From: an uncultured delta proteobacterium
Lineage (GTDB): Bacteria; Myxococcota; Myxococcia; Myxococcales; Myxococcaceae
Direction of reading: 5' to 3'
Length of the DNA stretch: 64,000 bases
NCBI GenBank assembly: GCA_963771175.1
Contig: CAVYSY010000046.1
Span: 1-64,000, forward strand
Part shown: one piece after another, positions 3,192 to 44,514 of the stretch
Layout of the letters: every line of letters begins with the position of its first letter
Position numbering within the stretch: the stretch's first letter is position 1
Position numbers and translations under genes: made by a program
The notes under the pieces: generated by a model
Told to the model about the DNA's origin: nothing
Databases searched by the model: none
The model's input: only the letters and a program-made list of their open reading frames with translations

Positions 3192-3361
3192 GTCAGGGGG
3201 ACGACCGCGAGGGGGGAGGTCCTCGGTTCAGGGCGACATTGTGAGCCGGATCCGGGTTTATCCGAAGGAGAAACCAGGCAGGCAAGGGGTGCACTGCCCA
3301 GTCGTGGGGCGCCGTGCATTGGCCATACCGTTCCCCTGCTGTTGGAACCCGCGTGACCGCA

Positions 3362-3393
3362 GGGCCCCGCCCCCCTGTGCAGAGGGCGGGGCC
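3362..3393. terminator. GC-rich hairpin, probable terminator of the 3415-4020 gene
   Basis: GGCCCCGCCC...GGGCGGGGCC inverted repeat just past the stop codon. Confidence 0.5.
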
Positions 3394-3414
3394 GCCGTGC
3401 TCGCCCGATGAGCT

Positions 3415-4020
3415 CTACTCCGACTTCTTCTGCTCCTCGGGCATTCCGGAGCCGCCGACGGCGGGGGACGGAGTGTCGCCCCAGCCCGCCTCGACGAACG
3501 TCTTCCACTTCCACTGGCCATCGCGCTTCACGAGCAGCCCGGAGTTCCGGCCGGGATACTTCTTGCCGCCCGTGGTCGTGGTGTAGTCATCGGTGTAAAC
3601 GACGAGCGAGTCGGACAGCACCTTGATGTCGAGCTTGTGGTTCGTCTTCATGTCCGCGGGCATCTGCTCGTACATGGGCTTCATCATCTCCGTGAACTTC
3701 TGACGGTCATACTGCTCGGACTTGGGGATGCCCTTGCTGTCATCTGTCGTGAAGAAGACCGGGAAGTCATTCCGGGCGATCGACGCCTCGAAGTCGCGCC
3801 TCTTCATGATGGCGTCCTCTTCCTTGATGAAGGCCTCGACCTCCTTTCGGGTCTGCGCTTCGTTGGTCGGCTTGCGGGTCCATGGCCCCATCTTGGACAT
3901 GTCCATGGGCGTGCCCGCACCACCGGTGGCGGGTGAGGGCTCCTGGGTCTCCTGGTCCTGAGCCCAGACGGGCGCGGTGAGCACGAGCGAGACGAGACAC
4001 ACTGCGATTCGACGCATCAT
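3415..4020 (-). CDS. Secreted NTF2-like / DUF4440-type protein
   Basis: RBS AAGGAGG, signal peptide ending AVWA-like (APVWA|Q), C-terminal [12 protein letters not shown] typical of NTF2-fold proteins. Confidence 0.65.
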
Positions 4021-4137
4021 GTGCGACCTCCTTCTCGCCCGAATGTGGTGGCGCACCCATCCCCGGACAATCCGGCCTTCCGATGGTCGCCTCGGCCTTT
4101 GGGGCCCCCCAGGCAGCCAGGGGGGCGCTCCCGGAGG

Positions 4138-5713: not shown

Positions 5714-6005
5714 CGCCCCGGTGCATAGCTCCCGGGGCGGTGCGAGAAAAGGGAAGAGGAGGGGTCAGGCTCGATGGGCGGGCGGGGGTCCGTGCGGCCG
5801 AGCCGCAGCTCTTGCCATGGGGCCTCTGTCATGGGTCAGGACCCGGTCACGACCCCTCGGTGACATTCTTCGCCCAGGGAGTGACGCAAAACGTCCGTTG
5901 GCCGCTGCCCGCTGCCCCGTCGCCGAGAGGGGGGTTGGGGTGCGCCCGGTGCTGGCCCATCCGGTGCATCCGCGGGCGAGGCTCACGTCGCTGAAAGGGC
6001 TCGTC

Positions 6006-6686
6006 ATGTGCCGCAACCCGCTGCTGCTCCTCCTGGTGGTGCTCCTCACCGCATCGACCGCTTCAGCGCAGTACGACGAGGAAGAGGCTTCGCCGATGCT
6101 CGAGAGCTCGAGCCGCTTCTCGCTCCAGACCGGCTGGCGGTACACCCCCAACACCCGGTTCTTTGACGACTACTACTCGCAGGCGAAGAACCAGAACCTG
6201 GCGCGCGCGGGGGGAGCGATGGGGGGCCCCCTGCTGGCGGCCACCTTCGCGTATTCGCCGCTGGAGTGGCTGGAGCTGGGAATCGATCTCTTCACCACCT
6301 ACGAGCGAATGCAGCTCACCGCCCGGCCAGGGCTGAACGCCGTGACGTTTGGAGCACTCGTGGGCCTTCGCCTCCAGAAGCGGCTGGAGCTCGGACCCAA
6401 GGTGCTGGTTCCTTCGGTGGGAGTCCTCATGGGACCCATGTTCGCCGCCTCGTACTTCGATGGAGGGCGCTCGGTGGAGAACGCCGCCCAGACGGTCGGA
6501 GGAGCGGTGGGGGCGACCCTGCGCCTCAGCGAGAAATGGGGGCTCGCTTTCGAGTACCGGCTGCTCTTCGGCAAGGGTGTGGCGGAAGAGGCAGGAGCTT
6601 ACGATGCGGCCGGGAACTGGTTCTCCGTGGGCATGACCTACCAGTTCCCCTCCGTGCCGGACCGGCCCATGAGCAGACGCTTCTAG
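6006..6686 (+). CDS. Outer-membrane beta-barrel protein
   Basis: Signal peptide (TASA|Q), alternating amphipathic strands, near-terminal FSVGMTYQF. Confidence 0.65.
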   Translation: MCRNPLLLLLVVLLTASTASAQYDEEEASPMLESSSRFSLQTGWRYTPNTRFFDDYYSQAKNQNLARAGGAMGGPLLAATFAYSPLEWLELGIDLFTTYERMQLTARPGLNAVTFGALVGLRLQKRLELGPKVLVPSVGVLMGPMFAASYFDGGRSVENAAQTVGGAVGATLRLSEKWGLAFEYRLLFGKGVAEEAGAYDAAGNWFSVGMTYQFPSVPDRPMSRRF

Positions 6687-6913
6687 CGTCCTCACCAACC
6701 CCCCAGGCGCAGCTCTCCCGAGAGGCCCTCGGCGGTTGAAACGAGGGCGGGCAGGCGGGGCTGGACAGGAGGGAGGGTTCCCCTTGGCGGCAGAGCGCCA
6801 TGCTGTCGCGGCGTGGACACAAGAGCATCACTCGGGAACAGCGGTCCCATCCGGTGTGCGTCTCCACCATTCAACGCCAGGGCCCAGGGGGGCTCCCAGG
6901 GGAGGGGAAGCGC

Positions 6914-8245
6914 ATGAAACGGATGGTGAGAGGGTTGTGGTGCGTGTTGCTGTGGGCGGGGCTCGTGGCGTGCGGTGTCCCGATGCCGGAGGAGGCGTCG
7001 GAGCCGACGGTGCCGGAGGAGGGCTCGGAGCTTAGCGTGAGCTCGGCCGAAGCGAAGCACCGGACTCCGCCGTTCACGGAGCCGTCGTGGGTGCGCACCA
7101 TCACCAGCGACACCGGCGAGCAGGAGAGCCAGGCCATCGCGCAGGACCGGCGAGGCAACGTGTACGTCCTGGTGACGGACATCGGAGGGCCGCTCGACTT
7201 CGGCTCTGGGCCCGTCACCTTGCCGTACCCGGTCTCGCGCATCGCGGGGCTCGCGAAGTACTCGCCTGGGGGTGAGCTGCTCTGGGCCCGCGTCATCGCG
7301 GCCGAGCCCACGACGGAGTTCCCCATCTCCTACACCCTGGGCACCGCGATGGCGGTCGACCCCCGGGGCCGCATCGTGCTCGGCATGCATGTGGAGGGGA
7401 GGCTCGTGCTCGGGGATATCGATGTGGGCCCGGGGGACTACCTGATGAAGCTGGACGAGGACGGCGAGGGGCTCTGGGCGCGCCGGCTGCCCACCCGGGC
7501 GACGGACGTGGCGATCGACGACAAGGGCCACATCGGCATCAACGGCCTGCTGCGGGGCGCGCCCGCGGCCACGTTCGACTTTGGAGACGGGCCCATCACG
7601 GCGGCGAAGGAGTATGCCTTCGTGGCGCGCTACTCCTCGCGGGGCGAGCTGGATTGGGTCTTCGTGGATGACGAGGTGGTCTTCACCCAGGGGTTCACCA
7701 CGGACGAGGATGGGAACTTCTACTTCAGTGGCAGCCGCTTCCCGGACATTCCGAGCGGCGTCGGCTCGCCCTACCTGCGCAAGGTGACGCGCGGGGGCAG
7801 GGGCTCGTGGGTGTACCACCTGGAGGATATGCTCGGCGGGTTCGCGGACCTCGCGGCGCACCATGACCGGGTGGTGGCGGTGGGCTCCTTCAGCGGCACG
7901 TTCCGTTTCGCGGGACGGACGTTGAGCGCGGAGCCCGAGGAGTTCGCGAGCATGCTGCTCACCTTCTCGCAGGGGGGCCGGGAGCGCTGGGGCCGGAGGG
8001 TGGACCACCAGCTGCTCGCGGTGGACCTGGACCACAAGGGCGGGGTGTACGTCGGGGGGACGCTGAGCTCCACGGGGGGGCCGTCGATGCTGTACCTCGC
8101 GCGCTACTTCAAGGAGAGCGGCAACCTGGACTGGGAGCTCGGCTTCCCGGAGCGCTTCTCCTTCGCGAGGGACCTCTCCGTGACGCCGAGAGGGGACCTG
8201 GCCGTCACCGGCGGGGCCATCGACGTGCTGCTCTTCAGGCGCTGA
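6914..8245 (+). CDS. Lipoprotein with beta-propeller (SBBP-like) repeats
   Basis: RBS GGAGG, lipobox LVAC, repeats such as AIAQDRRGNVYV, AKYSPGGELLW, ARYSSRGELDW. Confidence 0.7.
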   Translation: MKRMVRGLWCVLLWAGLVACGVPMPEEASEPTVPEEGSELSVSSAEAKHRTPPFTEPSWVRTITSDTGEQESQAIAQDRRGNVYVLVTDIGGPLDFGSGPVTLPYPVSRIAGLAKYSPGGELLWARVIAAEPTTEFPISYTLGTAMAVDPRGRIVLGMHVEGRLVLGDIDVGPGDYLMKLDEDGEGLWARRLPTRATDVAIDDKGHIGINGLLRGAPAATFDFGDGPITAAKEYAFVARYSSRGELDWVFVDDEVVFTQGFTTDEDGNFYFSGSRFPDIPSGVGSPYLRKVTRGGRGSWVYHLEDMLGGFADLAAHHDRVVAVGSFSGTFRFAGRTLSAEPEEFASMLLTFSQGGRERWGRRVDHQLLAVDLDHKGGVYVGGTLSSTGGPSMLYLARYFKESGNLDWELGFPERFSFARDLSVTPRGDLAVTGGAIDVLLFRR

Positions 8246-8271
8246 GCACCGGTGGCGCGCCATGCCAGACT

Positions 8272-8988
8272 TCATGACGACGGTGGGCGCGAACCCGAGG
8301 CTGCTGAAGGGGGAGGGAGCGTCACCGCGCCGCGCCGCGGGCCCGGCAGGGTCGAGAGCGCGATGCCGAGCTGTCCGGCCCAGTACAGCAGGATGGAGGC
8401 GTAGCTCATGCCCGCGACGGGATGCACGAACAGCCGGAAGGCGAGCAGCGTGTCGCTCAGGCCGAAGCACAGGGCCCCGAGCAGCGCGGCCCACTGTTCG
8501 CGCCGGGCGAGCCCCTCCTCGCCCATCAGGGCGGACGCGCGCCACATCATCGTGCAGATGACGGCGACGTAGAGTCCCACGGGCGGGCCCAATGCGCCCA
8601 GTCTGGGCGCGAGGAACAGCCAGAGGCCCGTGCCCAGGAGAAGGAAGGGGACACCCAGGCCCCAGCGCGGCGTGCGGGTGGCAGTCAGATACGCGGCGAT
8701 ATAGGCCACGTGGGCCAGCAGGAAGGCACCCAGGCCGTGTAGGAACAACGCCTCGTGAATCTCCAGCAGCAGATCGCCCAACATGGAGAGGGCGAGGCCG
8801 GCGGCGATCCACCGGGTGTAACGATTGCTCGGAGGCCACAGCCATACGGTGAGGCAGAGCAGGGGCACGGCCTTGCTCGCGAGTCGCAGCCAGAAGAGCT
8901 GCAGATGGATGCCGGAGAGGAAGGCGGCGACAGCCAGCCCTCCTACCAGGGCGAGCATGGGAGTCCACGGGGCGGTACGGAAGCGCAT
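8272..8988 (-). CDS. Lysoplasmalogenase (YhhN/TMEM86 family)
   Basis: LASKAVP, GLALSMLGDLLL, GLGAFLLAHVAY, FGLSDTLLA, YWAGQLGIA. Confidence 0.85.
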   Translation of the reverse strand: MRFRTAPWTPMLALVGGLAVAAFLSGIHLQLFWLRLASKAVPLLCLTVWLWPPSNRYTRWIAAGLALSMLGDLLLEIHEALFLHGLGAFLLAHVAYIAAYLTATRTPRWGLGVPFLLLGTGLWLFLAPRLGALGPPVGLYVAVICTMMWRASALMGEEGLARREQWAALLGALCFGLSDTLLAFRLFVHPVAGMSYASILLYWAGQLGIALSTLPGPRRGAVTLPPPSAASGSRPPSS

Positions 8989-9086
8989 GTGGCGCTCCAC
9001 GCTCGCATACCGGGCTTCCGGTATGGAGGCCGTTTGTCCTGAGCGCGGTTGACGGCCCCCATTGTCAACGTCATAACCCGCACATA

Positions 9087-12000
9087 ATGATTTCCCCGCA
9101 TAGGTTGACGCTCCTGCTTTCTCTGTTCGTCCTTTCGTTCGCGGATGGCGCAGTCGCCGCCAGCCTGAACTCCGCGTCATCCACTGTCTTCACCGTTCCC
9201 AACGGGACGTTCGAGACGCCCGCCCTCCCGGCGTCGCCCGGGTACCTGTACGCCCCCTCCGGAACCGGATGGACGCTCGTCAACGGCGCGGGCCTCTCCA
9301 GGGACGCCACCGCGTTCACCTCGGGCAACCCGAACGCTCCGGAAGGCGCCCAGGTGCTCTTCCTCCAGGGAACGGGCTCCGCTTCGCGGACCCTCAACTT
9401 CACGGCGGGCTACTACATCTTCAGCTTCTTCGCGGCGCAGCGCGGAAACACCCCCAGCACCCAGCGAGTCGAGCTGCGGATCGACGGGGTGGCCATCCAG
9501 GGGTTCACCCCCGCCGGAGCCGCTTACCAGCGCTTCAGCTCGGGCGCGGTGCTGCTGTCCTCCGGCCCTCACTCCATCGAGCTGCGCGGGCTCAACCCCC
9601 AGGGCGGCGACAACTCCGCCTTGGTGGACGACCTCGGGGCTACGCGAGTCAGGGAGCTCGGCATCAGCGGATTCGAATCCCCGGCCATCCCCACCTCCCC
9701 TGGGTACGCCTATGCACCGTCGGGCGGATCATGGACCTTCAACGGGCTCAGTGGTCTCAGTCGCAACGCCAGCGGGTTCACGGTCGCCAATCCCGCCGCG
9801 CCTGAGGGCAGCCAGGTGCTCTTCCTACAGGGCGCCTCCACGGCCTCCACCACCGTCACCATCCCGCGCAGCGGCTATTACCGGTTCCGCTTCAAGGCCG
9901 CCCTCCGCGCCAACGACCCGGTCCAGCCGTCGGCCAAGAACGTCCGCATCACCATCGGCGGCACCCAGGTCGGCGAGTTCCGCCTCGCCAGCATCCAGTA
10001 CCTCGAGCAGATCTCGGCCGCGATCTACCTGGACGCGGGCGCCAGCACGGTGAGCCTGACCGGCGTGGACACTGCGCCCGGAGACCACACGGGGCTGGTG
10101 GATGACCTCCGGATGGAGATGCTCCTCGATTGGCAAGACCCGTACGTCTGGGGCGGCGCGTTGCCCGGCGCGAACGATGACGCCACCGTGATCGCTGGCA
10201 GCGCCGTCTGCCTCCAGGGAATCCTCGCTCCGAAGAGCATCACCGTGAGTGGCGAGCTGCTCGGCGTCCAGAACCGGAACGTGGCCGTCACCACCCAGTA
10301 CGTGATGGTGATGGGCAGTGGCTCCCTGCTCGAGCTGGGACAGGAGCTACGCCCTATCCAGGCTCCGCCGTCTTCACCCTCAACGCCACGCCGGCCGATC
10401 CCAAAGTCATGGGGATGGGCAACAAGTTCATCGGCGCCATGGGCACTGGCACCATCCACCTCCACCGCTTGGAGCGGTCAGCTGGACGAACTCGGCGCGA
10501 ACGTGAGCGCCGCGGGGAGCTCCAGCGTGGTCTTGGAGAAGAGCCCGTGGACTGGCGGCCGGGCGACAGCATCGTGATCGTCTCCAGCCACCGGAACTGG
10601 AACGAGGCCGAGCAGCGGACCATCACGTCCGTCCTCCCGGGAAACACGACCCTCATGCTGGAGAGCCCGCTCACGTACTCGCACACCGGTGTGGTGAAGA
10701 GCTACACCGACGGCACGCGCACCTGGACCGCGGATTTCTGCGCGCCCAGGTGCGGCTGCTCACGCACAACATCCTGGTGCAGGGCGATGCGGCGTCCGCG
10801 TCCTCCGGTGGGTTCGGCGGACACGTGATGTATTTTATGGACGACTCGGCGGCGTACGTCAGCGGGGTCGAGCTTCAACATGGGCCAGAAGGCGCTCCTC
10901 GGACGCTACCCGTTCCACTGGCGCATGCTGGGCAGCGTGGGCGCGGGCCAGTACTTAACTCCAGCATTCACCAGTCCTACAACCGGGCCATCACCATCCA
11001 CGGCACCGAGAGCACGCTGGTCGAGAACAACTTCTTCTATGACCACGTCGGGCATGGCGTGTTCCTGGAGGACGGCAGCGAGCGCTTCAACGTGATCAAG
11101 AAGAACGTGACCCTGCTCACCAGGCGCCCCGCGCCGGGCGAGGAGGTCACGCCGTCCGATAACCAGTTCGACCAGGTCCAGAACCGCTCTCCGGCCAGCT
11201 ACTGGATCACCAATCCCCAGAACACGTTCGAGGACAACGTCGCGGCGGGCACCGAGGGGACCGGGTTCTGAGTACACACTCCCGCCCGCCCGCTGGGATT
11301 GTCCGCGACCGACCCGCGTCTTCTCGTCGATGCGCCCCAACGCGCTCCCGATGATCTCGTTCAAGGGGAACAGCGCCCACAGCACCATGACCGGGTTCGA
11401 CATCTTCGACGGGCTGGATGCCAACCACTCGATCCTCCCGAACGCGGGCTGGTCGGACACCGGCATCCACCTCATCGAGAACAACACTGGTGGTACGCGA
11501 ACGACCTGGGCATCTACACGGGATCGGCGCCGGCGGTCCGTCCGACAACCTCATCTTCCGCAACAACGTCCTGGTCGAGAACACGGTGGGCGACATGATG
11601 GCCAGCTACGGCATCGTCGACCAGAGCGTGTTCGTGGCCAACTCCGGCGAGAACCTCGTCGGCGGCATCCGCTACGCCTACCGCGTGTATGACGGCGCGG
11701 GCCAGGTCCGGGACTCCCACTTCATCGGGTGGGATGCCACCAACGCCAACTTCCTGATCAACACGGGCGCCGCGATCAAGCACCCCAATCACACCTTCAC
11801 CGGGAACACGATGTCTCCCGCCGGCCCACCGCGCACGAGCCTGGAGGACTTCGATATCCGCCCTGTTCCGGGCACCCACGCAACCACCCCGGGCACCCGC
11901 GGTACTCGTCCATCGTGCTCCGTGACGTCACGGGCGGCATCAGCGGGAAGGCCGACACGTCCATCGTGTCCAATACCCGTTCTTGCGGGTCGGCGACGAG

Positions 12001-17612: not shown

Positions 17613-18125
17613 GGCAGGCATGAGAGACCGGGCTCGGGGGCGTCGACGTCCTGGTGCTTCAACAAGCAGCGCACGGCCTGGGGGTCCATCGTGTCCGCCA
17701 CCCAGGACCGCCGCCAGAGGAGGGCGGCCACGCGGTTGGGGATGCAGCGAGTCCGGGGCGACCACGGCGCGGAGTCCCGCCTCCTGCCGGAGCGAGTCCA
17801 GCGAGGCCACGATGTCGGGGCAGCCCTCGGGGCAGTTGTAGAGGAAGACCGCGTGCCCGTGCTCCAGGTTGTGCAGCCACACGCACCGGTTCTGCTCGGT
17901 GTCATGGACACGGCAGCGCAGGGTGCTGCCGCAGTGGTCGCCGCTGGTGGGCGGATTCAGCCCGTCTCCGCACGCGGTGCTCGTGCAAGACAGGTGGTTC
18001 GCGGTCGCGGGGGGCGGCGAGAGCGGGAACTCGTAGCCGGAGCACTCGGGATCCAGCTCGGTCGGACCGCAGGCGAGCACTGGAGCCAGGAGGAGGGCGG
18101 GGAGGGCGCGGGAGAGCAAGGACAT
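17609..18125 (-). CDS. DUF3105-domain lipoprotein (frameshift ~17740)
   Basis: Lipobox VLAC, NPPTSGDH, LHNLEHGHAVFLYNC. Confidence 0.75.
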
Positions 18126-18184
18126 CGACGGTCCTCCTTTACCGCATACATGGTATCCACGTCAGCAGGTGGCCTACACTGGTC

Positions 18185-19668
18185 ATGGAAAACTCCATGT
18201 CCGACCTGCTGCGCCACGCTCACGCCGCTCTCTTCGAGTCCACGCCCGATGGCGTGCTGGTGCTCGATTCCCAGGACCGAGTCGTGGAGGCCAACGGCGC
18301 CGCGCAACGACTCCTCGGGGAACTGGGCGACACGTTCCGGGGCAGGCCCATCTCGGAGCTGCTGCCGGAGTGGACTCCGCCCGAGCCGTTGTCCCCGGGG
18401 AGCAACCGCGGGAAGGGGAGCTCGTGTGGCACGGGTCCGCGGGGTCGACGCGCCAGGCGCGCGTGCTGCGCGTCCGGAGCCTGCCCCTTCCGGAAGGGCA
18501 GGTGCTGTTGCTTCGCGATCTGACGGCGCACGCGGAGGTCGAGGCCAGCCTGCGCCGGCAGAAGGAGTATTACGAGTCGCTGGTCCTCAACAGCCCGGTG
18601 GCCATCGTCACCATCAACCTCCGCTTCAACGTGGTGTCCTGGAACCCCGAGGCGGAGCGGCTGTTCGGCTACACGGCCCGGGAGGCCATCGGCCGGAACA
18701 TCCTGCGGCTGGTGGCCTCCGAGGGGCCGATCCGGGAGGAGGCCGAGAGCACCGCACGCGAGGCGCTCCAGCGCGGCCGGGTCCACTCCCTCACCCGACG
18801 GCTGCGCAAGGATGGGACGCCCATCGACGTCGAGCTCCTGGCGCTGCCGGTGTCGGTGGAGGGCGAGCAGGTGGGCTTCATCGCCATCTATCACGACATC
18901 ACCGAGCTCCAGCGGCTGCACCAGCAGGAGGTGGCGCACCTGCGTGCCCTCGAGCGCGAGCGCGAGCGGGCGGATCAGCTCCTGCTCAACATCATGCCGA
19001 GACCCGTGGCCGACCGGCTCAAGATGGGCCAGCGGATCATCGTGGAGAACTTCCCGGACGTCACCGTGCTGTTCGCCGATCTGGTGGACTTCACCCGCTT
19101 CGCCGCCCAGCACATGCCGGCGGACGTGCTGCAGGTGCTGAACATGGTGTTCTCGGTGTTCGACCAGCTCACGGACGAGTTCGGGGTGGAGAAGGTGAAG
19201 ACGATCGGGGACGCGTACATGGTGGTGGGCGGGCTGACGCTGCCTCGGAGCGACCATGCCGATGCCGTGGCGGGCCTGGCGCTGGCCATGCGCGCGGAGC
19301 TCTTGAAGCTGGGCGAGCAGCTCCAGATCCCCCTTCACCTGCGCATCGGCATCCACTTGGGCCCGGTGATCGCCGGGGTCATCGGCGACAAGAAGTTCGC
19401 CTATGACCTGTGGGGAGACACGGTCAACACCGCGAGCCGGATGGAGTCGCACGGCGTGGTGGATGGCATCCACATCTCCGAGACGGTCCACGAGCGGCTG
19501 CGGGGCCGCTACCGCTTCCAGGACCAGGGCGTGGCGCACGTGAAGGGGAAGGGCCCCATGCGGACGTGGCTGTTGCTCGGCGCGGGCGAGGGCGACTCAG
19601 AGTCCGTGGAGGACGTGCTGGCTCACGCCGCCTTGCGCACCGGCAACACGTCGCGCAACTCCGCGTGA
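18185..19668 (+). CDS. PAS-PAS class III adenylate/guanylate cyclase (frameshift ~18400)
   Basis: Two PAS domains, LLLNIMP, VTVLFADLVDFT, EKVKTIGDAYM, RIGIHLGPV, YDLWGDTVNTASRMESHG. Confidence 0.9.
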
Positions 19669-27947: not shown

Positions 27948-28072
27948 ATGACGACCCTTGCCTCACCCTGGCCGCGGCCGCCGTCGAGCACAGCTTCCTG
28001 CCCGAGCCCCGGAAGCGTGAGCTGATCGCCGCCCAGCGCGCGAGCGCGAGTGGCCTTCGCGAGGGACGCTGA
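27948..28072 (+). pseudogene. Short gene remnant resembling an adenosine deaminase C-terminus
   Basis: ATG at 27948 is out of frame with LAAAAVEHSFLPEPRKRELIAAQ; resemblance judged by eye only. Confidence 0.35.
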
Positions 28073-29378
28073 CCCCCTCTATGATGGTGCTGGACCCGGT
28101 TCGGGCACACACGAAGAGGAGCTCACCATCGGACGCAACAAGAGAGGAAAGGCTCGTGCGGTGACGGCGCCGGCGGCGCCAAAGGCCCCGGTTCAGGCCC
28201 CCCTGCACGCGGTCGGGTCCGGCGCTCAGCCGCCACAGGTATCCGCACCACCGGCACAGCCCCTGCCGTCAGGGCTCTCCGAGGCGGCGCTCTCCGAGGT
28301 GGAGGCCCGGCGGGTGGACTTCGCCTGGTCGGCGGCCATGGTGGGCTTGTTGGCGCTGGTGTTCGCCCTGTTGTCGGTGTTCGGCGGAGTGGCGGTGCCG
28401 GTGCTGCTGGCGCTCAGTATGGCGTACGTGCTGAATCCGCTCGTGACCGCGCTGGAGCGCCGGGGCCTCAACCGGTCCCTGGGGACGACCGCGGTGTTCG
28501 CAGGGTGCGCGCTGCTGACGGTTGGGGCGGTGCTGTACCTCATCCCGGTCTTCCGGGATGAGGCGCAGAAGCTGCCGGACTTCTTCGTCCGCGCGAGTCA
28601 GCGGGTGGTGCCGCAGGTGGAGTCGTTGCTGGGGCGTCCGCTCCCGGAGCTGCTTCGCCAGCGCATGGCGGAGCTGGGCGGGCAGGCCTCGGAGTTGCTC
28701 CAGAGCGCGGGGCCCACGGCGGCGCGGCTGGTGGCGAGCTTCGCCGGCAACACCGCTCGCCTCGTGACCACGTTGCTGGGCCTGCTGGTCGTCCCGGTGC
28801 TGGGCTTCTTCTTCCTGCAGGACTACCCGAGCCTCATGGAGTTGGTGAAGGGGCTGGTGCCGCGCCGGGCCGTGGGGCTGGTCGTCCGGCGCTTCTCCGA
28901 GGTGGATGACGTGCTGTCCGCCTTCGTGCGGGGTCAGATCACGGTGGGCGCCATTCTCTCGGTGCTCTACAGCACGGGTCTGGGACTGGCGCGCATCGAC
29001 ATGGCGATCGTCATCGGCGTCATCGCCGGCTTCGGCAACATGGTGCCCTACCTGGGAACGAGCGTGGGCGTGGTGCTGGCGCTGCTGGGGTTGATGCTGT
29101 CCTGGCAGGGGCCGTGGCAGCTCGCGGCGGTGATCGGCACGTTCGTGGTGGGCCAGATGGCCGAGGGCTTCTTCATCACCCCTCGCGTGGTGGGGGACAA
29201 GGTGGGCCTCTCCTCGGTGTCCGTCATCATCGCCATCCTGGCCTTCGGCGAGCTGTTCGGCTTCACCGGCATCCTGCTCGCGGTGCCCGTGACGGCCATC
29301 CTCAAGGTGGTGCTGAGCGTGGTGGTGGAGCGCTACCAGCGGATGACCGTCTACACCGGCGAGGGGCCGAGCGCCTGA
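28050..29378 (+). CDS. AI-2E family transporter (start uncertain; GAGGAG precedes an in-frame ATC at 28128)
   Basis: AYVLNPLVTALERRG, FVRGQI, NMVPYLG, EGFFITPRVVGDKVGL, FGFTGILLAVP. Confidence 0.88.
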   Translation: MAFARDADPLYDGAGPGSGTHEEELTIGRNKRGKARAVTAPAAPKAPVQAPLHAVGSGAQPPQVSAPPAQPLPSGLSEAALSEVEARRVDFAWSAAMVGLLALVFALLSVFGGVAVPVLLALSMAYVLNPLVTALERRGLNRSLGTTAVFAGCALLTVGAVLYLIPVFRDEAQKLPDFFVRASQRVVPQVESLLGRPLPELLRQRMAELGGQASELLQSAGPTAARLVASFAGNTARLVTTLLGLLVVPVLGFFFLQDYPSLMELVKGLVPRRAVGLVVRRFSEVDDVLSAFVRGQITVGAILSVLYSTGLGLARIDMAIVIGVIAGFGNMVPYLGTSVGVVLALLGLMLSWQGPWQLAAVIGTFVVGQMAEGFFITPRVVGDKVGLSSVSVIIAILAFGELFGFTGILLAVPVTAILKVVLSVVVERYQRMTVYTGEGPSA

Positions 29379-38448: not shown

Positions 38449-38556
38449 CCGCCCCTCCACCCCCCTGGGGGGTACACCGAAAAGCCGGCGAGTGACGTAG
38501 ACTCCGCGTGCGCTGCCGTGGGGCCTCCGCTCCCCCGGCCGAGGAGACACGTGACG

Positions 38557-40028
38557 ATGTTTTCGAGATGGACCGTGGGGCGGCAGTTCCTGCTGGGCTT
38601 GTTCCTGATGTGTTCGTTGATCGGGGCATTCATCCTCCTGAACCGTATGGGCACCTATGGTTTGACGGGCGCCTCCAACCTCGTGCTGCGGAGCCAGAAG
38701 ACGCTCCTCCAGATCGAGCGGATCCTCTTCCCACATCAAGGATGCGGAGATGGGGCAGCGCGACTACCTCCTCACCGGCAACGAGGCCTCCCTCGCGCCC
38801 TACCGCCAGGCCCTGGACGGCGTGCCCAAGGAACTCGAAGCTCCTGCGCGAGTCCCTCTCCGACAACCCCGAGCAGCTACGGCGTCTGGAGGCGCTGAAG
38901 GCTCTCGTCGAGCAGCTGCTGGCCAGCCTGAGCGCCAACGTGGAGCTTCGCCGCGACCAGGGCTTCGAGGCCGCCCTGGCCCGCGTCAACACGGGTGAGG
39001 GCTCGCGGCAGACGGACAGCGTCTACGCGGCGATTGCGGACCTGCGCCAGCAGGAGGAGCAACGGCTCGCGGAGCGCGATGGGCAGGAGGAGAAGGAGAT
39101 GCGCTCCCTGGATCGGTTCTACGTCATCGATGGCGCCGCGCTCCTGTTCTTCTGTGGGCTGATCGCCCTGCTCATCGGCAGGAACCTGGAGCGGAGGCTC
39201 CAGACCGCCATCGCGCAGGTGCAGGGCTCGTCGGCCGAACTCCATACGGCGGCCTCGCAGCAGAGCACCGGCGCGCGGGAGCAGGCCTCGGCCACCACGG
39301 AGATCTCCACCACCGTCAAGGAGCTGCTGTCCACGTCGCGGCAGATCGCCGGCAGCGCGCAGCAGGTGGCGCGCGTGGCGGACGAGACGGCCGGCGCCGC
39401 CCGCACCGGCAACGAGACGGTGCAGCACGCCCAGGAGGCCATCGACGCGGTGCGCCGCCAGGTGGACGCCATCGTCAATCACATGCTGGAGCTGGGCAAG
39501 CGCTCCCAGGAGATCGGCGGCATCCTGGACATCATCAACGAGCTGGCCGAGCAGACGAACATCCTCGCCATCAACGCCACCATCGAGAGCGCCGGGGCGG
39601 GGGAGCACGGCAAGCGCTTCGCCGTGGTGGCCGAGGAGATCCGCAAGCTGGCGGACCGCGTGGGCAGCTCCACCAAGGACATCCGCGTGCTCATCGACGA
39701 GATCCGCGCCGCCTCCAACACCACCATCATGGCCACCGAGGACGGCTCCAAGGCGGTGCAGAGCAGCGCGAAGCAGTTCTCCGACGTGGCCGGCAGCTTC
39801 CGGCGCATCGCCGAGCTGGTGCGCGCCAACCTGGACGTGGCGCGGGAGATCGAGCTGAGCACCCAGCAGCAGACGACGGCGGTGGAGCAGGTCAACACCG
39901 CCATCCTCGAGGTGGCGCAGACGGCCCGTCAGGCCGAGTCCACCTCCTCGCAGACGCTGCAGACGGCCAACCAGCTCTCCCAGCTCTCCAAGCAGCTCAA
40001 CGCCATCCTCGACTCGAAGGCCGCCTGA
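38557..40028 (+). CDS. Methyl-accepting chemotaxis protein with CHASE3 sensor (frameshifts ~38730-38840)
   Basis: TM1, [18 protein letters not shown]3 motif, TM2, [37 protein letters not shown]. Confidence 0.9.
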
Positions 40029-40032
40029 GCCT

Positions 40033-40638
40033 GTCGACCAGGACGTCCAAGGCCTCTACGATGACCTTGGCCAGAAGTACGACACGTGGACCCTTCTGCC
40101 GGACCGCCTCTTTCTCGACGGGTGGCGACGCGAGCTGCTCTCGAACGCACGCGGTGACGTGCTCGAGGTGGCCGTTGGGACGGGGAAGAACCTCCAGTTC
40201 TACCCCGAGGGTTGCCGGGTGACGGGCGTGGACTTCTCGCGGTCGATGCTCGACGAGGCCTCGCGCCGCGCCCGCGCCTTGGGGCGTGTGTTCGAGCCGC
40301 GGGAGGGCGACGTCACCGCGTTGCCGTTCGCCGATGCGAGCTTCGATACGGTGGTCTGCACGCTCGGGGCCTGCACGTTTGATGATCCGCTCGCCGCGTT
40401 TCGCGAGATGCGCCGGGTGTGCCGCACCGATGGGTCGGTGCTGTTGCTGGAGCACGTGCTCCCACGGGACCGGCCCCTGGCGTGGCTCGCGAAGGCCATC
40501 ACCCCCTTCGCGCGCAGGGCGGTGGGCTGCAATCCCAACCGCGACACGCTGGCGCTCGTGCGCGAGGCGGGGCTGCACGTCGTCTCGGTGCGCGGGCGAG
40601 CGCGGGACATCGTGCTTTCGGTGGTCGCGCGCCCCTGA
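40033..40638 (+). CDS. Class I SAM-dependent methyltransferase; no start codon visible for the N-terminal part
   Basis: In-frame VDQDVQGLYDDLGQKYD..RRELLSNARGDVLEVAVGTG, VTGVDFSRSML, GDVTALPFADASFDTVV. Confidence 0.8.
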   Translation, partial: VDQDVQGLYDDLGQKYDTWTLLPDRLFLDGWRRELLSNARGDVLEVAVGTGKNLQFYPEGCRVTGVDFSRSMLDEASRRARALGRVFEPREGDVTALPFADASFDTVVCTLGACTFDDPLAAFREMRRVCRTDGSVLLLEHVLPRDRPLAWLAKAITPFARRAVGCNPNRDTLALVREAGLHVVSVRGRARDIVLSVVARP

Positions 40639-40681
40639 CGCGTACCCGGCCCCGCTCCTGGTGGGGCCGGTGGGGTGTCCC

Positions 40682-41281
40682 TCACACCGGCCCGCGTGCC
40701 CCTCGCCGTGACAGCCACTGGGCGAACTGCGCGTATACCGAGTGGGCCTGCCACCGGGCGAACTGCGCGTTGCGCTCGGCCGGTGACAGCGCGGAGAGGG
40801 GCTTCGAGGCTCCCTCCGGAATGAAGACGTTCCACGTCGTCGACCAGGCCTCGGCGCAGCGGGTGCCGTCCACCTCCAGGGCCAGGGTCCCCACGCCCTG
40901 CTTGTCGACGAAGGTGTGGGTCACCCCGTCCTCGTCCACGTAGACCAGGGCGCCGACGAAGCGGCAGGTCCGGGACGGCAGCCCGTTGGCGAGCCTCAAC
41001 AGGCCGGCCACCCCGATCGTCTCGAGCATGAATTTCGTCACCGGTCCTGGGAAGCCCGCAAGCCCGTCCACGCACAGGCCGCTGTCCTCCACCACCAGCG
41101 GCTCCTCGATCATCGAGAACGCCTGCCGGGCCTTGTCCAGTGCCACGGCCTCCAGCGTGCTCCCCTGGGGCTCGATGATCGGGAGCTCGATGCGCTGCAA
41201 CTCGGCGCCCACCGCCGCGAGGCACTCCGCGAGGACCTTCGCCTTCCCGCGGTTGGTGCTCACGAACTTGATGCTCTCCAC
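40682..41281 (-). CDS. Divergent Ham1/ITPase-family nucleoside-triphosphate pyrophosphatase (alternative ATG at 41320)
   Basis: FVSTNRGK, EPQG..VALDKARQA, VVEDSGLCVDGLAGFPGPVTK, VFIPEG; no FGYDP or SHR motif. Confidence 0.85.
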   Translation of the reverse strand: MESIKFVSTNRGKAKVLAECLAAVGAELQRIELPIIEPQGSTLEAVALDKARQAFSMIEEPLVVEDSGLCVDGLAGFPGPVTKFMLETIGVAGLLRLANGLPSRTCRFVGALVYVDEDGVTHTFVDKQGVGTLALEVDGTRCAEAWSTTWNVFIPEGASKPLSALSPAERNAQFARWQAHSVYAQFAQWLSRRGARGPV

Positions 41282-41324
41282 GGAACGCTCTCCTCGTGTC
41301 GCGTCGGGATTCAGAAGCATGTCA

Positions 41325-42437
41325 TCAGGCCGCTACCAGGGACACGCCATCGAGCGCGCGCAGGAGCTGCTCCTCGGTGACGAGATCCACGCCCTTGCAG
41401 CGCCGCAGCCGGTCCACCCAGGTGCTGGTCAGCTCCTGGATGACCGGGCGGTACTCGGGCGGGGTGGAGGCGACACAGGTGCGGTAGTCCGAGATGACGT
41501 GGGCGGCGGTGCCGTGGATGCCCACCTCGTGGATGGCCTTGCGGATGGGGCGGGCCAGCTTCTCCAGCAGGGCGTGCGAGTGCGTCGGCTCCCGGTACAC
41601 CTCCGCCACGGAGGCGCAGGCCGTGGACCGGCAGATCTCCCACAGGGCCGCCAGGTCCGCGCGCAGGTCCGGGTATTTCTCGAGCGCCAGCAGCAACGGC
41701 CTCGTCACGGCCCCCATCAGCAGATCGTCATTCTCGCCCTCGGTCCAGCGGTTCTCGACGATGTTCACGATGTCGTCCACGTCCTGGAAGATGCGCCCGA
41801 AGGACTCCGCCACGCTGAGGGGGAGGGGGTCGCTCCCGTTGAGCAGCAGCGCCGTGTCCAGCCCGAAGGCGACTCCGGCCGTGTTCTCGCTGTAGCGGTT
41901 CTCCAGCCACTGATCGAACAGGTTCTCGGTGGGATAGATGTTGTTCCGCTCCCAGAGCTGGAGGGAGTACAGCTCGACGAAGAGGTTCGTCGTGGCATCG
42001 AGCAGGCGCGGGTCGATGCGCGCCGCCTCCCGGGTGGCGATCGCGACCAGGGTGCTCACGAAGGGAGCCGTGCTGGCCTCGCCGAAGTTGATGGGGAAGG
42101 TGGGCCGTCCCGAGCGCATGGGCGTGCGATCCACCGTGTCATCCACGATGGCGCAGGCCTCCATGCTGAGCATCATCACGGGCAGGAATTTCCGGTGCGA
42201 GGCATGGATGCCTCCCGAGGCCTCGCCCAGGACCAGGAACATGAGCGGCAGCAGCATGAACGACGGTTGCGGGTTGTCGCGCACCACCGTGTCGTAGAAG
42301 GGCCGCAGCTTCTCGGGCAGGGGGAGGGTGTCGAGCACCCGTCGGGCCTCCTCGACGAGTGGCGCGAAGACCTCTCGCCGGCGGGCGAAGACCCCTTGGA
42401 AGTACCGGGGATAGCGCAGGGGGACCAGTTCCTTCAT
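41325..42437 (-). CDS. Divergent isoprenyl-diphosphate-synthase-fold (polyprenyl synthetase-like) protein
   Basis: First Asp-rich motif IVDDTVDRTPMRSGRPT, second FGRIFQDVDDIVN, then DDLLMGAVTRPLLLALE. Confidence 0.8.
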   Translation of the reverse strand: MKELVPLRYPRYFQGVFARRREVFAPLVEEARRVLDTLPLPEKLRPFYDTVVRDNPQPSFMLLPLMFLVLGEASGGIHASHRKFLPVMMLSMEACAIVDDTVDRTPMRSGRPTFPINFGEASTAPFVSTLVAIATREAARIDPRLLDATTNLFVELYSLQLWERNNIYPTENLFDQWLENRYSENTAGVAFGLDTALLLNGSDPLPLSVAESFGRIFQDVDDIVNIVENRWTEGENDDLLMGAVTRPLLLALEKYPDLRADLAALWEICRSTACASVAEVYREPTHSHALLEKLARPIRKAIHEVGIHGTAAHVISDYRTCVASTPPEYRPVIQELTSTWVDRLRRCKGVDLVTEEQLLRALDGVSLVAA

Positions 42438-42441
42438 GTCG

Positions 42442-43008
42442 TCACCCCGCCACCGTCCGCGCCGCCGGCTGGACACCGAGCGCGGGAAGGAGCTCCTGCA
42501 CCTGGGACACCACGGTGAACAGCGCCTCGGCCCGCGCGTACGCGAAGCCGTGTCGCACCACCGAGTCGGCGAGCGCGACGAGCGGCTGGAAGAAGCCCCG
42601 CGTGTCGAGCAGCACGATGGGCTTGTCGAACATGCGCATCTGCTTCCAACTGATGACCTCCAGGGTCTCCTCCAGCGTCCCGAAGCCGCCCGGCAGGACG
42701 ACGAAGGCATCGGCCAGCTCCGCCATCCGCCGCTTGCGCTCGTGCAGATCGGCGGTCCAGATGAGCTCGCTCAGCCCACGGTGCGCGACCTCGTACCGTT
42801 CCAGATCCCGGGGCATGACACCCACCACTCGACCCCCCCGGGCGAGCGCGGCATCCGCGATGGCGCCCATCAGTCCTGCTCGGGCACCTCCGTACACGAG
42901 CTGGATTCCCTGGTCTGCCAGGGCCGTGCCCAGGGCTGAGGCGGCGCTCATATGCTCTTCGTACACACCCGGTGAGGATCCACAGAAAACACAAACGGAT
43001 TTCGTCAT
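42442..43008 (-). CDS. LOG-family nucleotide 5'-monophosphate phosphoribohydrolase (TIGR00730-type)
   Basis: VCVFCGSSPG, LVYGGARAGLMG, LHERKRRM, PGGFGTLEE. Confidence 0.93.
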   Translation of the reverse strand: MTKSVCVFCGSSPGVYEEHMSAASALGTALADQGIQLVYGGARAGLMGAIADAALARGGRVVGVMPRDLERYEVAHRGLSELIWTADLHERKRRMAELADAFVVLPGGFGTLEETLEVISWKQMRMFDKPIVLLDTRGFFQPLVALADSVVRHGFAYARAEALFTVVSQVQELLPALGVQPAARTVAG

Positions 43009-43155
43009 GAGTGGGGGATGGGGGGCGAGGGGGGGGCTCGACTCTTTGACGCCCCATTGTCTACCCGAATGACTCCGATTCACAACGAGCGACCAGTCAG
43101 GCTGCTGACGCAGTGGGTCGGGTTGTCCATCCGAGGTCTATACTCCGCGCCCTGA

Positions 43156-44514
43156 ATGATGGCGGACAAACTCAAGGAACAGCTCCGGCGTACGTGGCGA
43201 CGTGACCTGTGGCTCACGCTCGCACCCGTGGTCCTCATCATCGGCGCCGCGTTCGCCGCCACGTTCTACTTCGTCAAGCCCGCGCCTCCCAAGACGCTCG
43301 TCCTCGCGATGGCTCCGGACGAGGGTGGATTCCGGTACTTCGCACGGCGGTACAAGGAGGTCCTCGCGCGGGACGGCATCTCGTTGGTGCTGCACCCGAC
43401 AAAGGGCTCGGTCACCAACGTCGAGCTCCTCGCCAACGACACCGCGGGGGTCGACGTCGCGTTCGTGCAGAGCGGCTCGGTGGGTGGAAAGAAAGCGGCG
43501 AACATCGTCTCGCTCGGCAGCCTCTCGTACGTGCCCCTGTGGGTCTTCTACCGGGGCGAGCCTATCGACGACGTGCTCGGGCTGCGGGGCAGGCGCATCG
43601 CCGTCGGGCCCACCGAGAGCGGGACGCGCGCGCTCGCCCTCACGCTCCTGGAGGCGACCGGCGCCGCCGCGGCCCCGACGGAGCTCCTGCCCCTCGAGCG
43701 CGACGAGGCCATCGCGCAGCTCAAGCAGGGCCACATCGACGCGGTGGTCCTCGTCTCTCCCGCCGAGTCGCCGGCCATCCAGAAGCTCGCCGCGACACCC
43801 GGAGTGCGGCTCCTCAGCTTCGCGCGCGCCGATGCCTTCGTCCGCCGGTTCCCCTACCTGTCGAAGCTCGTGCTGCCGCGGGGCGTGTTCAATCTCGAGG
43901 CGGACATCCCCGAGCGCGACGTGGTGCTGCTCGCGCCGACCGCGAACCTCGTGGCTCGGGACACGCTGCATCCAGCCCTCGCGTACCTGCTCATGCGCGC
44001 CGCGAGCGAGATCCACGGCGGCGCCGGGATGCTCGACCGCTCGGGCGAGTTCCCGGCACCGCTGGAGACCGACTTCCCCCTCAGCGGCGAGGCCCGTCGC
44101 TATTACCAGGCCGGCGTCCCGCTCCTGCAACGCTACCTGCCGTTCTGGGCCGCGAACCTCGTTGACCGGCTCTGGGTGATGCTCGTGCCGATCATCGCCG
44201 TGGTGGTGCCCCTCGGGCGGATCGTGCCGGCGCTGTACCTGTGGCGGTTGCGGTCCCGCATCTTCCGCTGGTACGCGCGCCTCAAGGAGCTCGAGCTCCA
44301 GCTCGAGGAGGACCTCGACAGGCTGATGCTCGAGGACATGCTCAAGCGGCTGGAGGAGATTGAGCGCGCGGTGAACCGGATCCCCATGCCCGTCTCGTAC
44401 GCGGAGAACCTCTACTTCTTCCGCGAGCACATCGACCTCGTCCGCCGGCGGATCATCCGGCGGCTCGCGGGTGGCCCCGAGAGCACCGACGCCGCGACGC
44501 GGGTGACCGTCTGA
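43156..44514 (+). CDS. TAXI-family solute-binding protein with N- and C-terminal membrane anchors
   Basis: TKGSVTNVELL, VDVAFVQSG, LRGRRIAVGPTESGT, LHPALAYLL, LQRYLPFWAANLVDR. Confidence 0.8.
   Translation: MMADKLKEQLRRTWRRDLWLTLAPVVLIIGAAFAATFYFVKPAPPKTLVLAMAPDEGGFRYFARRYKEVLARDGISLVLHPTKGSVTNVELLANDTAGVDVAFVQSGSVGGKKAANIVSLGSLSYVPLWVFYRGEPIDDVLGLRGRRIAVGPTESGTRALALTLLEATGAAAAPTELLPLERDEAIAQLKQGHIDAVVLVSPAESPAIQKLAATPGVRLLSFARADAFVRRFPYLSKLVLPRGVFNLEADIPERDVVLLAPTANLVARDTLHPALAYLLMRAASEIHGGAGMLDRSGEFPAPLETDFPLSGEARRYYQAGVPLLQRYLPFWAANLVDRLWVMLVPIIAVVVPLGRIVPALYLWRLRSRIFRWYARLKELELQLEEDLDRLMLEDMLKRLEEIERAVNRIPMPVSYAENLYFFREHIDLVRRRIIRRLAGGPESTDAATRVTV

Follow-up and report, generated by a model that had tools for sequence, protein, structure and literature searches.

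Why should a gene for a protein with the fold of isoprenyl diphosphate synthases (IDS) lie between a gene for a LOG-type N-ribohydrolase and one for a Ham1-like pyrophosphatase? Such a trio occupies the minus strand between positions 43008 and 40682 of the 64,000-nucleotide stretch of DNA analyzed here (assembly GCA_963771175.1, contig CAVYSY010000046.1, positions 1 to 64,000, from an uncultured bacterium of the Myxococcaceae; hereafter the window), and a first-pass annotation of this DNA had proposed that the trio encodes a new route to a prenylated purine. We find that the three genes form a real, tightly packed operon, and that the adjacency of LOG and IDS-fold genes exceeds chance, as judged by their association at 12 of 24 related loci in three phyla and by 17 fusion proteins among 83 homologs. 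Our preferred reading, to which we give an even chance, is that the operon encodes a small pathway to a cytokinin-like metabolite, a prenylated purine base, in which the IDS-fold enzyme would prenylate a purine nucleotide.

Structure of the operon

LOG is the first gene of the operon (43008-42442, 188 aa, from ATG 43008 to TGA 42444-42442), followed by the IDS-fold gene (42437-41325, 370 aa, from ATG 42437 to TGA 41327-41325) and the Ham1-like gene (41320-40682, 212 aa, from ATG 41320 to TGA 40684-40682), all on the minus strand, with a spacer of exactly 4 nt between LOG and IDS (42441-42438) and another of 4 nt between IDS and Ham1 (41324-41321). An alternative in-frame Ham1 start, GTG 41281, lies 43 nt past the IDS stop codon with aggagag 6-12 nt upstream of it, and the 199-aa form that begins there is the one found in the protein database (P0230). 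The GC content of the window is high, about 0.62-0.74, and against a background of 68-70% GC all three open reading frames (ORFs) show the third-codon-position GC pattern (GC3) of real genes. Reading the minus strand confirms what the first-pass annotation had said of this layout: three co-oriented genes, 4 nt spacers, and the GTG alternative about 43 nt downstream.

An IDS fold without an IPP site

The IDS-fold protein matches PF00348 at 1.1e-10 (41.6 bits against a cut-off of 27) over profile positions 52-248 of 251, leaving positions 1-51 unmatched. An AlphaFold2 (AF2) model of the protein has a predicted local distance difference test score (pLDDT) of 90.0 and a predicted template-modeling score (pTM) of 0.90, and the top Foldseek matches of the model are solanesyl- and octaprenyl-diphosphate synthases (TM 0.69/0.78 for 9jr6, 13-20% identity); AF2, Foldseek, and Pfam agree on the all-alpha IDS fold. 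The best NCBIfam IDS model reaches 30.5 bits against a cut-off of 383, no model in the NCBIfam scan comes near its cut-off, and no specific ComQ model was matched; a protein atlas search gave 'polyprenyl synthetase' clusters and no others.

Alignment of 15 family members, and then of the family with two canonical IDS (P0082 and P0083), separates what has been kept from what has been lost. Both Asp-rich motifs, DDTVD (99-103) and QDVDD (218-222), are invariant in the IDS-like family, and D99, D100, D103, D221, and D222 are invariant in the 15 members as well as in the alignment with the canonical enzymes; the second motif reads DDIVN, the family pattern being QDVDD and then xVN. In farnesyl diphosphate synthase, GGKRxR and the second Arg of RRG bind isopentenyl diphosphate (IPP). 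The canonical GGKRLRP aligns with QPSFM and a 5-column gap in the IDS-like family, RRG has become RSG (S109 is invariant), and GK has become GE; the basic residues that bind IPP are absent from the window protein. The missing GGKRxR segment bears out the earlier description of an altered prenyltransferase fold, and because the IPP site is deleted, the protein is very unlikely to be an IPP-elongating synthase. New invariant residues have appeared elsewhere in the family (W162, E163, Y168, W177, R181, Y182, E228, R230, and GENDD at 234-238).

Two other identities for the protein were considered and rejected: a regulatory, non-catalytic IDS subunit, given that both Asp-rich motifs are invariant, and a terpene cyclase. 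Terpene cyclases carry an NSE/DTE motif, and on inspection of the sequence D221, N225, and E228 are not spaced as that pattern requires.

A profile search of 1.84 billion representatives returned 34 sequences at E<=1e-30, after which scores fall from 107 to about 66 bits, the level at which ordinary IDS set in; the break indicates that the IDS-like family is small and discrete. A word-indexed homolog search with the IDS-fold protein gave 83 matches, 81 of them family members (E<=1e-53).

Fusions and neighborhoods

Seventeen of the 83 homologs, 555-578 aa in length, are IDS-LOG fusion proteins with both domains. In the Archangium lansingense fusion (P0054), residues 1-348 correspond to the IDS (45% identity to the window protein) and residues 382-538 to LOG (46%). 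The AF2 model of a natural IDS-LOG fusion (pLDDT 80.5, pTM 0.60) has a disordered linker at 362-378 and no fixed inter-domain arrangement. No further fusions were found in a search of proteins of 649-2000 aa, which is weak evidence; the fusion with HMG-CoA reductase (HMGR) described below was also missed.

A genome scan gave 24 loci (L001 to L024) in Myxococcota, Chloroflexota (Herpetosiphonaceae), Acidobacteriota, and Streptomyces sp. NBC_01077. Two strains of a single species account for L002 and L006, and one Streptomyces genome for L020 and L021. Loci were annotated by six-frame phmmer searches with the window proteins, by Pfam on 110 GC3-picked ORFs with additions, and by all-against-all BLAST clustering. 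The IDS-like gene has a LOG partner at 12 of the 24 loci (L001-6, L011 as a fusion, L012, L014, L017, L020, and L021), an inosine-uridine-type nucleoside hydrolase at 5 (L008, L018, L019, L022, and L024), a HAD phosphatase at 14 (L001-6, L013, L015, L016, L018, L019, L022, L023, and L024; these give only generic HAD-IA matches), and a Ham1 variant at 6 (L011, L012, L014, L017, L020, and L021). Put another way, an N-ribohydrolase, either LOG or nucleoside hydrolase, is present at 17 of the 24 loci, a phosphohydrolase, either HAD or Ham1, at 20, and both kinds together at 16. Among the 8 loci without both kinds, the contig breaks off next to the gene in L008, L015, L016, and L023, and L013 has a HAD only, with no N-ribohydrolase; the remaining three, from Chloroflexota, are taken up below.

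Five gene orders are spread over Myxococcota, Acidobacteriota, and Streptomyces: LOG-IDS-HAD; IDS-LOG fusion followed by Ham1; IDS-LOG-Ham1; LOG-Ham1-IDS; and LOG-IDS-Ham1-methyltransferase. LOG, IDS, and Ham1 thus form a conserved functional unit, and the condition under which the first-pass annotation would have counted its proposal refuted, a trio found nowhere else, does not apply; the exact trio is, however, one of several interchangeable layouts. In a quick maximum-likelihood tree of 28 family rows with 4 canonical IDS as outgroup, the window protein falls inside the LOG-IDS-HAD clade (77% identity to that of Vitiosangium, L001), and the IDS-LOG fusions with Ham1 form the sister clade; HAD-IDS systems, some followed by a hydrolase, make up another clade in which the acidobacterial LOG-Ham1-IDS loci are nested, and LOG is paired with Ham1 in at least four separate parts of the tree. 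In the closest relatives of the window a HAD gene takes the place of Ham1, and in other clades a nucleoside hydrolase with a lipoprotein-like N-terminus takes that of LOG. At the syntenic site beside a CHASE3 chemoreceptor gene, Vitiosangium carries LOG-IDS-HAD, the window LOG-IDS-Ham1, and an Archangium metagenome-assembled genome (MAG; L011) the IDS-LOG fusion and then Ham1.

The LOG-IDS-Ham1-methyltransferase cluster occurs twice in Streptomyces sp. NBC_01077 (NZ_CP108669.1; L020 at 368684-385655 and L021 at 9645567-9662538), in copies that sit symmetrically in a terminal inverted repeat, each about 0.37 Mb from its end of the chromosome, and the adjoining IS110-family transposase suggests that the cluster is mobile.

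The LOG and Ham1-like partners

The window LOG matches PF03641 (6.3e-40) and TIGR00730 (193.6 bits against a cut-off of 96.35), and in a further test of the LOG/TIGR00730 class it scores 140.8 bits, below the cut-off of 300. Its best solved relatives are cytokinin LOGs, 5zbj coming first (8.7e-50), followed by 1t35, 2a33, and 5its, and YvdD, AtLOG, and CgLOG are among them. The motifs GGARAGLMG, LHERK, and PGGFGTLEE are present, and the catalytic Arg and Glu are intact, corresponding by motif counting to R99 and E122 of CgLOG (PMC4979012). The prenyl-pocket residues proposed for CgLOG in the same paper are M96, H97, K100, E125, and W129; by motif counting the window LOG has L, H, K, E, and W at these five sites, four identical and one conservative, and so retains a prenyl pocket of the cytokinin type. 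Of the partner LOGs, only those of the window, L001, and L002 retain the pocket Trp; it is replaced by L, M, A, or S in L004, L012, L014, L017, L020, and L005, and the pocket His is replaced by R or S in the first five of these. The Met start is conserved in L001, L002, L004, and L005. The window LOG is a typical type-I LOG.

The Ham1-like protein belongs to PF01725 (4.2e-23, 82.6 bits against a cut-off of 22.5) and falls below both equivalog cut-offs (TIGR00042, 83.3 against 145.35; NF011396, 94.8 against 203). Its nearest solved relatives are the archaeal ITPases Mj0226 (1b78, 1.4e-18) and PH1917, and alignment with them shows that the protein retains the catalytic segments STNRGK, EPQ, VEDSGL, and GFPGPVTKF. 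The base-recognition segments have been replaced: G(F/Y)G(Y/F)DP(I/V)F has become AWSTTWNVF, and the SHRG segment has become FARWQA. The protein is thus a Ham1 family member by score and by its catalytic segments, without the ITP/XTP base-recognition residues, in agreement with the altered Ham1 of the first-pass annotation.

The same alteration recurs beside other IDS-like genes. C..AWS.LW(N/R)VF(I/V)P replaces the base-pocket segment in 5 of 6 Ham1 variants (window, L011, L012, L014, and L017), W(Q/R).HSVY is found in 4 of 6 (window, L011, L014, and L017), and the Streptomyces L020 protein has diverged at both base-pocket segments. The subfamily is discrete, with 82 clusters and a jump in E-values from 1e-34 to 1.6e-17, and within it the window protein is closest to that of L011 (3.5e-112). 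Fifteen Ham1-variant clusters match an IDS-like cluster in the size of their longest contig (7 unfused and 8 fused, compared by eye); equal sizes suggest that the paired clusters come from the same contigs, and if they do, several metagenomic relatives, with IDS 58-70% identical, would carry the IDS-like gene beside a Ham1 variant. The Ham1 variant therefore appears to be specific to the module, and its variant base pocket is common to several phyla.

Links to isoprenoid and cytokinin chemistry

Two loci connect the IDS-like family with chemistry beyond its hydrolase partners. In a MAG (L018:7959-10478), one open reading frame joins an IDS-like domain (residues 106-277 matched) to HMGR (417-782, 2.5e-98). 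The nucleoside hydrolase that follows this ORF is split over two frames (10658-11191 and 11248-11805), possibly by an assembly frameshift.

In Archangium minus Cbm 6 (L013, NZ_CP043494.1), positions 876-9071 hold a co-oriented cluster resembling the Rhodococcus fascians fas operon, with the IDS-like gene last. In order, it encodes a methyltransferase (876-1598), a 249-aa protein like adenylate isopentenyltransferase (IPT; 1709-2458, PF01715 8.5e-11), a CysK-like pyridoxal phosphate enzyme (2400-3317), an IMPDH/GMP-reductase-like protein (3324-4445), a P450 (4469-5707), a cytokinin-dehydrogenase-like (CKX-like) protein (5753-7174, PF09265 1.1e-27), a HAD (7273-7971), and the IDS-like protein (7968-9071). 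The CysK-like enzyme is reminiscent of the alanylation of cytokinins that gives lupinic acid, and the cluster is a candidate for the biosynthesis of a heavily tailored cytokinin-derived product. The IDS-like family is tied to N-ribohydrolases by fusion and repeated neighborhood, to isoprenoid supply by the HMGR fusion, and to cytokinin-type chemistry by this cluster.

The nucleoside hydrolases beside IDS-like genes (L008:1707-2969(-), L018:10658-11191, L019:9617-10723, L022:9524-10393 with ATG 9563, and L024:6262-7809) may point to where the pathway ends. All five have an N-terminal hydrophobic stretch ending in a lipobox-like Cys (VGC, TGC, TAC, LGC, and TGC), after which lies the catalytic motif DTDxDFDD, and they look like exported lipoproteins; such N-termini suggest that an exported riboside is cleaved outside the cytoplasm in the last step. 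Encoded between the genes for the IDS-like protein and the nucleoside hydrolase is a small, conserved protein of about 125 aa (L015:9081-9524, L019:9057-9536, and L022:9131-9520), for which no Pfam or NCBIfam match was found; its pattern (…PSGPIRMVAAALSFGFDLRLKIFATREEAL…) is loosely like SpoIIAA-like/STAS proteins, and weak SpoIIAA-like ORFs lie upstream in L019 and L022.

A proposed pathway

What the analysis shows directly is the gene layout, the domain identities, the motifs lost and kept, the fold, the fusions, and the neighborhoods. The chemistry of the pathway that we favor is inferred throughout, from each reaction and its place in the sequence to the acceptor, the site of attachment on the base, and the length of the prenyl chain. 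Using the two Asp-rich motifs that it retains, the IDS-fold enzyme would bind and ionize an allylic prenyl diphosphate; with no IPP site to receive it, the prenyl cation would go to a purine nucleotide, most likely an adenine nucleotide, with release of pyrophosphate. The Ham1-like pyrophosphatase, its catalytic segments intact and its base pocket rebuilt, would then turn the prenylated nucleoside triphosphate (NTP) into the monophosphate (NMP), either as a step of the pathway or as a means of keeping the modified nucleotide out of the NTP pool. Finally, LOG would cut the N-glycosidic bond of the prenylated NMP, giving the prenylated base and ribose 5-phosphate. Characterized plant LOGs are reported not to take di- or trinucleotides or nucleosides (PMC8234997), which is why phosphate trimming would be needed.

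Where relatives have swapped parts, the HAD phosphatase would convert the NMP to the nucleoside and the lipoprotein nucleoside hydrolase would convert the nucleoside to the base, probably outside the cytoplasm; Ham1 and HAD might also protect the producer by draining the modified nucleotide from the pool, as yeast HAM1 and LOG1 do with base analogs (PMC5940212). The sugar released would differ, ribose 5-phosphate with LOG and ribose with the nucleoside hydrolase, whereas both layouts would give the base, and we therefore place the value of the pathway in the base.

Several observations weigh against this pathway. The lysines of the KT and GK motifs, which bind the allylic diphosphate in canonical IDS, are also lost in the IDS-like family, and binding of a prenyl diphosphate is plausible, not assured. 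Loci L007, L009, and L010 of Chloroflexota have no hydrolase partner in the flanks retrieved, only an RsbR-like STAS protein (6qcm, 6.6e-22), the N-terminus of which may be a membrane sensor (a protein atlas lead only). LOG with HAD, the commonest layout among the closest relatives, is not neatly explained by a linear scheme from NTP to NMP to base. The window LOG looks like an ordinary cytokinin-type enzyme and could also serve general metabolism. And L013 carries an adenylate-IPT-like gene of its own; the IDS-like enzyme is therefore not always a replacement for IPT and must do something else there, perhaps alkylation at a different position or assembly of another side chain. The earlier claim of a route without an IPT- or MiaA-type enzyme does not hold everywhere: no IPT match was found in the trio or in the other window ORFs scanned, but the cluster of L013 has an IPT-like gene.

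Alternative explanations

The IPT-like gene of L013, clustered as it is with HAD and IDS-like genes, also lends itself to a different division of labor, which we consider unlikely: the IDS-fold enzyme would leave the nucleotide alone and make or reshape an unusual prenyl donor or side chain (by irregular coupling, or as a methylated or longer unit), an IPT encoded elsewhere would attach it to adenine, and LOG with Ham1 or HAD would process the product. A cyanobacterial IPT-family adenine prenyltransferase is reported to co-cluster with a polyprenyl-synthetase-like gene thought to supply longer donors (10.64898/2026.04.03.716432), and methyltransferases of R. fascians reshape IPP before IPT acts (PMC8234997); a methyltransferase adjoins the trio both in the window and in Streptomyces. 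But an IPT-like gene was found at 1 of the 24 loci (IPT models were scanned in the GC3-picked ORFs, and the six-frame search had no IPT query), a Pfam scan of 44 window ORFs revealed neither an IPT nor any other terpenoid gene, the GGKRxR site for a second diphosphate substrate is deleted, and a fusion to LOG is easiest to understand if the two domains act on one and the same nucleotide. A quite unlikely variant would have the prenyl group go onto the ribose or phosphate, or onto a base freed beforehand, with a prenyl-ribose(-phosphate) as product or with the hydrolases acting before the transferase. LOG followed by HAD, and HAD followed by nucleoside hydrolase, would end in the same ribose derivative, which would explain LOG with HAD at L001-L006, and the fusions and neighborhoods do not fix the order of the steps; yet the LOG-Ham1 layouts, which have no phosphatase, would end in another sugar product, the genes of cytokinin type in L013 (IPT, CKX-like, and IMPDH-like) point to base-centered chemistry, a modified base would suit the rebuilt pocket of the Ham1 variant, and free adenine needs no dedicated supply by Ham1 and LOG.

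Could the operon have nothing to do with prenylation? Sanitation or salvage of the nucleotide pool, in which Ham1 and LOG would clean up non-canonical purine nucleotides and the IDS-fold protein would have an unrelated or non-prenyl role such as binding another diphosphate, strikes us as improbable. Ham1, HAD nucleotidases, and nucleoside hydrolases are indeed classical house-cleaning and salvage enzymes, the window has a thrS-infC-rplT-pheST housekeeping neighborhood, and yeast HAM1 and LOG1 both protect against base analogs (PMC5940212). Sanitation would, however, leave unexplained the invariant Asp-rich motifs, the fusions of the IDS-like domain to LOG and HMGR, and the CKX/IPT/P450 cluster, and the family is rare and patchy across phyla, unlike a housekeeping function. 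An anti-phage system that depletes nucleotides or signals with them, which the first-pass annotation had raised as its own alternative, is scarcely credible: KomB, a Ham1-like protein of a defense system, is among the solved relatives of the Ham1-like protein (8zsg, 7.2e-11), SLOG/LOG-like domains occur in defense proteins, and the window LOG has a weak PsyrA match (1.6e-06, residues 15-76), but PADLOC (2.0) finds nothing for the IDS-like or Ham1 proteins, no defense-island neighbors were found among the window ORFs scanned, and the recurrent partners are biosynthetic (HMGR, P450, CKX-like, and IPT) or signaling genes. We accordingly rejected a defense system as the identity of the operon.

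Comparison with known systems

The systems that most resemble a prenyl-purine module of this kind are the pairs of adenylate IPT and LOG. De novo cytokinin modules of adenylate IPT and LOG include R. fascians fas and Agrobacterium Tzs/Tmr; the fas operon has IPT, P450, CKX, and LOG, with IPP methyltransferases upstream; and IPT-LOG fusion proteins from R. fascians (A21d2) and Claviceps purpurea have both activities, make cytokinins, and are the known precedent for joining a prenyltransferase to LOG in one protein (PMC8234997). In both cases LOG is paired, at times within a single protein, with an enzyme of known or proposed prenyl transfer, the known modules giving free prenyl-adenine, and accessory P450, CKX, and methyltransferase genes are common to the fas region and L013. 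The differences are equally clear. IPT has a P-loop fold, whereas the IDS-like protein has the all-helical trans-IDS fold, and no PF01745 or PF01715 match was found in any of the three operon proteins; the IDS-like module adds a dedicated Ham1 or HAD phosphohydrolase; and it lies on the chromosome of free-living soil bacteria, not on a virulence plasmid. The IDS-like module may therefore work like an IPT-LOG pair without being a member of the IPT class.

Canonical trans-IDS (PF00348; solanesyl, octaprenyl, and geranylgeranyl diphosphate synthases) share the fold, DDxxD, and DDxxN with the IDS-like family, but keep GGKRxR, RRG, and the KT and GK lysines, all of which the family, at 13-20% identity, has lost. 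A precedent for an IDS-fold enzyme that hands an ionized prenyl diphosphate to a nucleophile other than IPP is ComQ, which prenylates a tryptophan of ComX and is encoded with comX and comP. No comX-like peptide or comP kinase was found beside the window trio, where the neighbors are the chemoreceptor, a methyltransferase, and an NMT1-like binding protein. House-cleaning enzymes of the ITPase/Ham1/RdgB family (Mj0226, PH1917, and human ITPA) share the fold family and the catalytic segments with the Ham1 variant; they stand alone, whereas the variant is encoded in an operon and has a Trp-rich motif in its base segments (in the window, L011, L012, L014, and L017, not in Streptomyces L020).

Hybrids of a terpenyl diphosphate and an adenine nucleoside are made by the tuberculosinyl-adenosine transferase Rv3378c and, as proposed for sorangiadenosine, by the sora cluster, and a myxobacterial producer is known from the family to which relatives of the window belong. 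These terpene-nucleoside products keep the ribose, however, and the IDS-like module appears built to remove it. According to PMC7321100, Rv3378c differs from classical cis-prenyl transferases, and the candidates in the proposed sora cluster (Vitiosangium) are 'eudesmadiene transferases' of about 518 aa beside a class I cyclase; the enzyme set given there is a different one, with no IDS-like, LOG, or Ham1 member, and we rejected the sorangiadenosine cluster as the identity of the operon. TvAPT, a cyanobacterial adenine N6-prenyltransferase that uses C10 and C15 donors, is alike in making prenyl-adenine nucleotides with chains longer than C5 and in having a polyprenyl-synthetase-like gene nearby, and LOG frees the base from longer-chain prenyl-adenine nucleotides in vitro (10.64898/2026.04.03.716432). 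The same source places TvAPT in the IPT family, and it too was rejected as an identity.

No description of the IDS-like family or of the gene set was found in the literature searched, where most subscription journals were not covered, and the belief of the first-pass annotation that the trio had gone undescribed accords with this. What would be new is a type of transferase-LOG prenyl-purine biosynthesis with an IDS-fold transferase and a dedicated phosphohydrolase.

The operon in its genomic setting

Upstream of the operon, the 147 bp between the LOG start at 43008 and the start of a divergent gene for an NMT1/TAXI-like binding protein (43156-44514) form an intergenic region (43009..43155) that we presume to contain the operon promoter; neither a sigma-70 consensus nor an intrinsic terminator was found in a scan of 40000-43400, and with no such consensus the promoter is placed by layout only. 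Downstream, a class I S-adenosylmethionine methyltransferase gene (40159-40638, plus strand, PF08241 3.6e-22) is convergent with Ham1. Its conserved N-terminal part (DQDVQGLYDDLGQKYD…) can be read in the same frame from about 40033, immediately past the stop codon of the chemoreceptor gene, and no ATG, GTG, or TTG for this part was found before 40159, so the gene may be truncated or have an unusual start. A homolog (phmmer 6e-21) is co-oriented after Ham1 only in Streptomyces L020 and L021, that is, at 2 of the 24 loci and in one genome. With one other genome to speak for it and a window copy that lacks a canonical start for its N-terminal part, the link of the methyltransferase to the module is weak, and the gene is only a possible accessory of the operon.

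The surroundings are housekeeping and sensory genes: thrS, infC, rplT, pheS, pheT, an HU-like gene, and, adjoining the module, a CHASE3 methyl-accepting chemoreceptor gene (38508-40028, plus strand). A CHASE3 chemoreceptor gene also adjoins the module in L001:9780-11627(-), L011:3616-5172(-), and L012:11790-16207, and the last of these, a Kofleriaceae locus, has a CheA gene as well. LuxR-type (GerE) genes adjoin the module in L004, L005, L012, and L019, and STAS or RsbW-like genes in L005 and L007-L010. The chemoreceptor, LuxR-type, and STAS neighbors may reflect synteny or may hint at signaling.

Elsewhere in the window, on the plus strand, the ORF at 22057-22887 matches the C-terminal half of Peptidase_M2, the angiotensin-converting-enzyme family (1.9e-136, profile positions 302-581), the N-terminal half lying outside the ORF as picked; a PAS-domain adenylate/guanylate cyclase is encoded at 18037-19668 (PF00211, 5.3e-59), and an AI-2E family transporter at 28026-29378 (PF01594, 1.5e-48).

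Biological significance

The signaling neighbors invite a broader and more tentative reading, which we find doubtful but worth stating. The IDS-like family could be a second, non-IPT class of nucleotide prenyltransferase with which social and filamentous soil bacteria (Myxococcota, Chloroflexota, Acidobacteriota, and Streptomyces) make prenyl-purine signals for secretion, bacterial counterparts of plant cytokinins and of the discadenine of Dictyostelium. The lipoprotein nucleoside hydrolases would release the signals outside the cell, and the chemoreceptor/CheA, RsbR-type STAS, and LuxR-type neighbors would read them.

If the IDS-fold enzyme does prenylate a nucleotide, cytokinin-type biosynthesis would have arisen twice, on unrelated folds, and an enzyme superfamily that has been studied very thoroughly would acquire another catalytic class. 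The orphan Ham1 subfamily would gain a job, as a candidate for the step from prenylated tri- or diphosphate to the monophosphate that LOG needs; to our knowledge no enzyme has been assigned to this step in plants. A cryptic family of metabolites would be opened in myxobacteria, Streptomyces, and uncultured soil phyla, and the chemosensory, stressosome-type, and LuxR neighbors would make a signaling role directly testable in genetically tractable myxobacteria.

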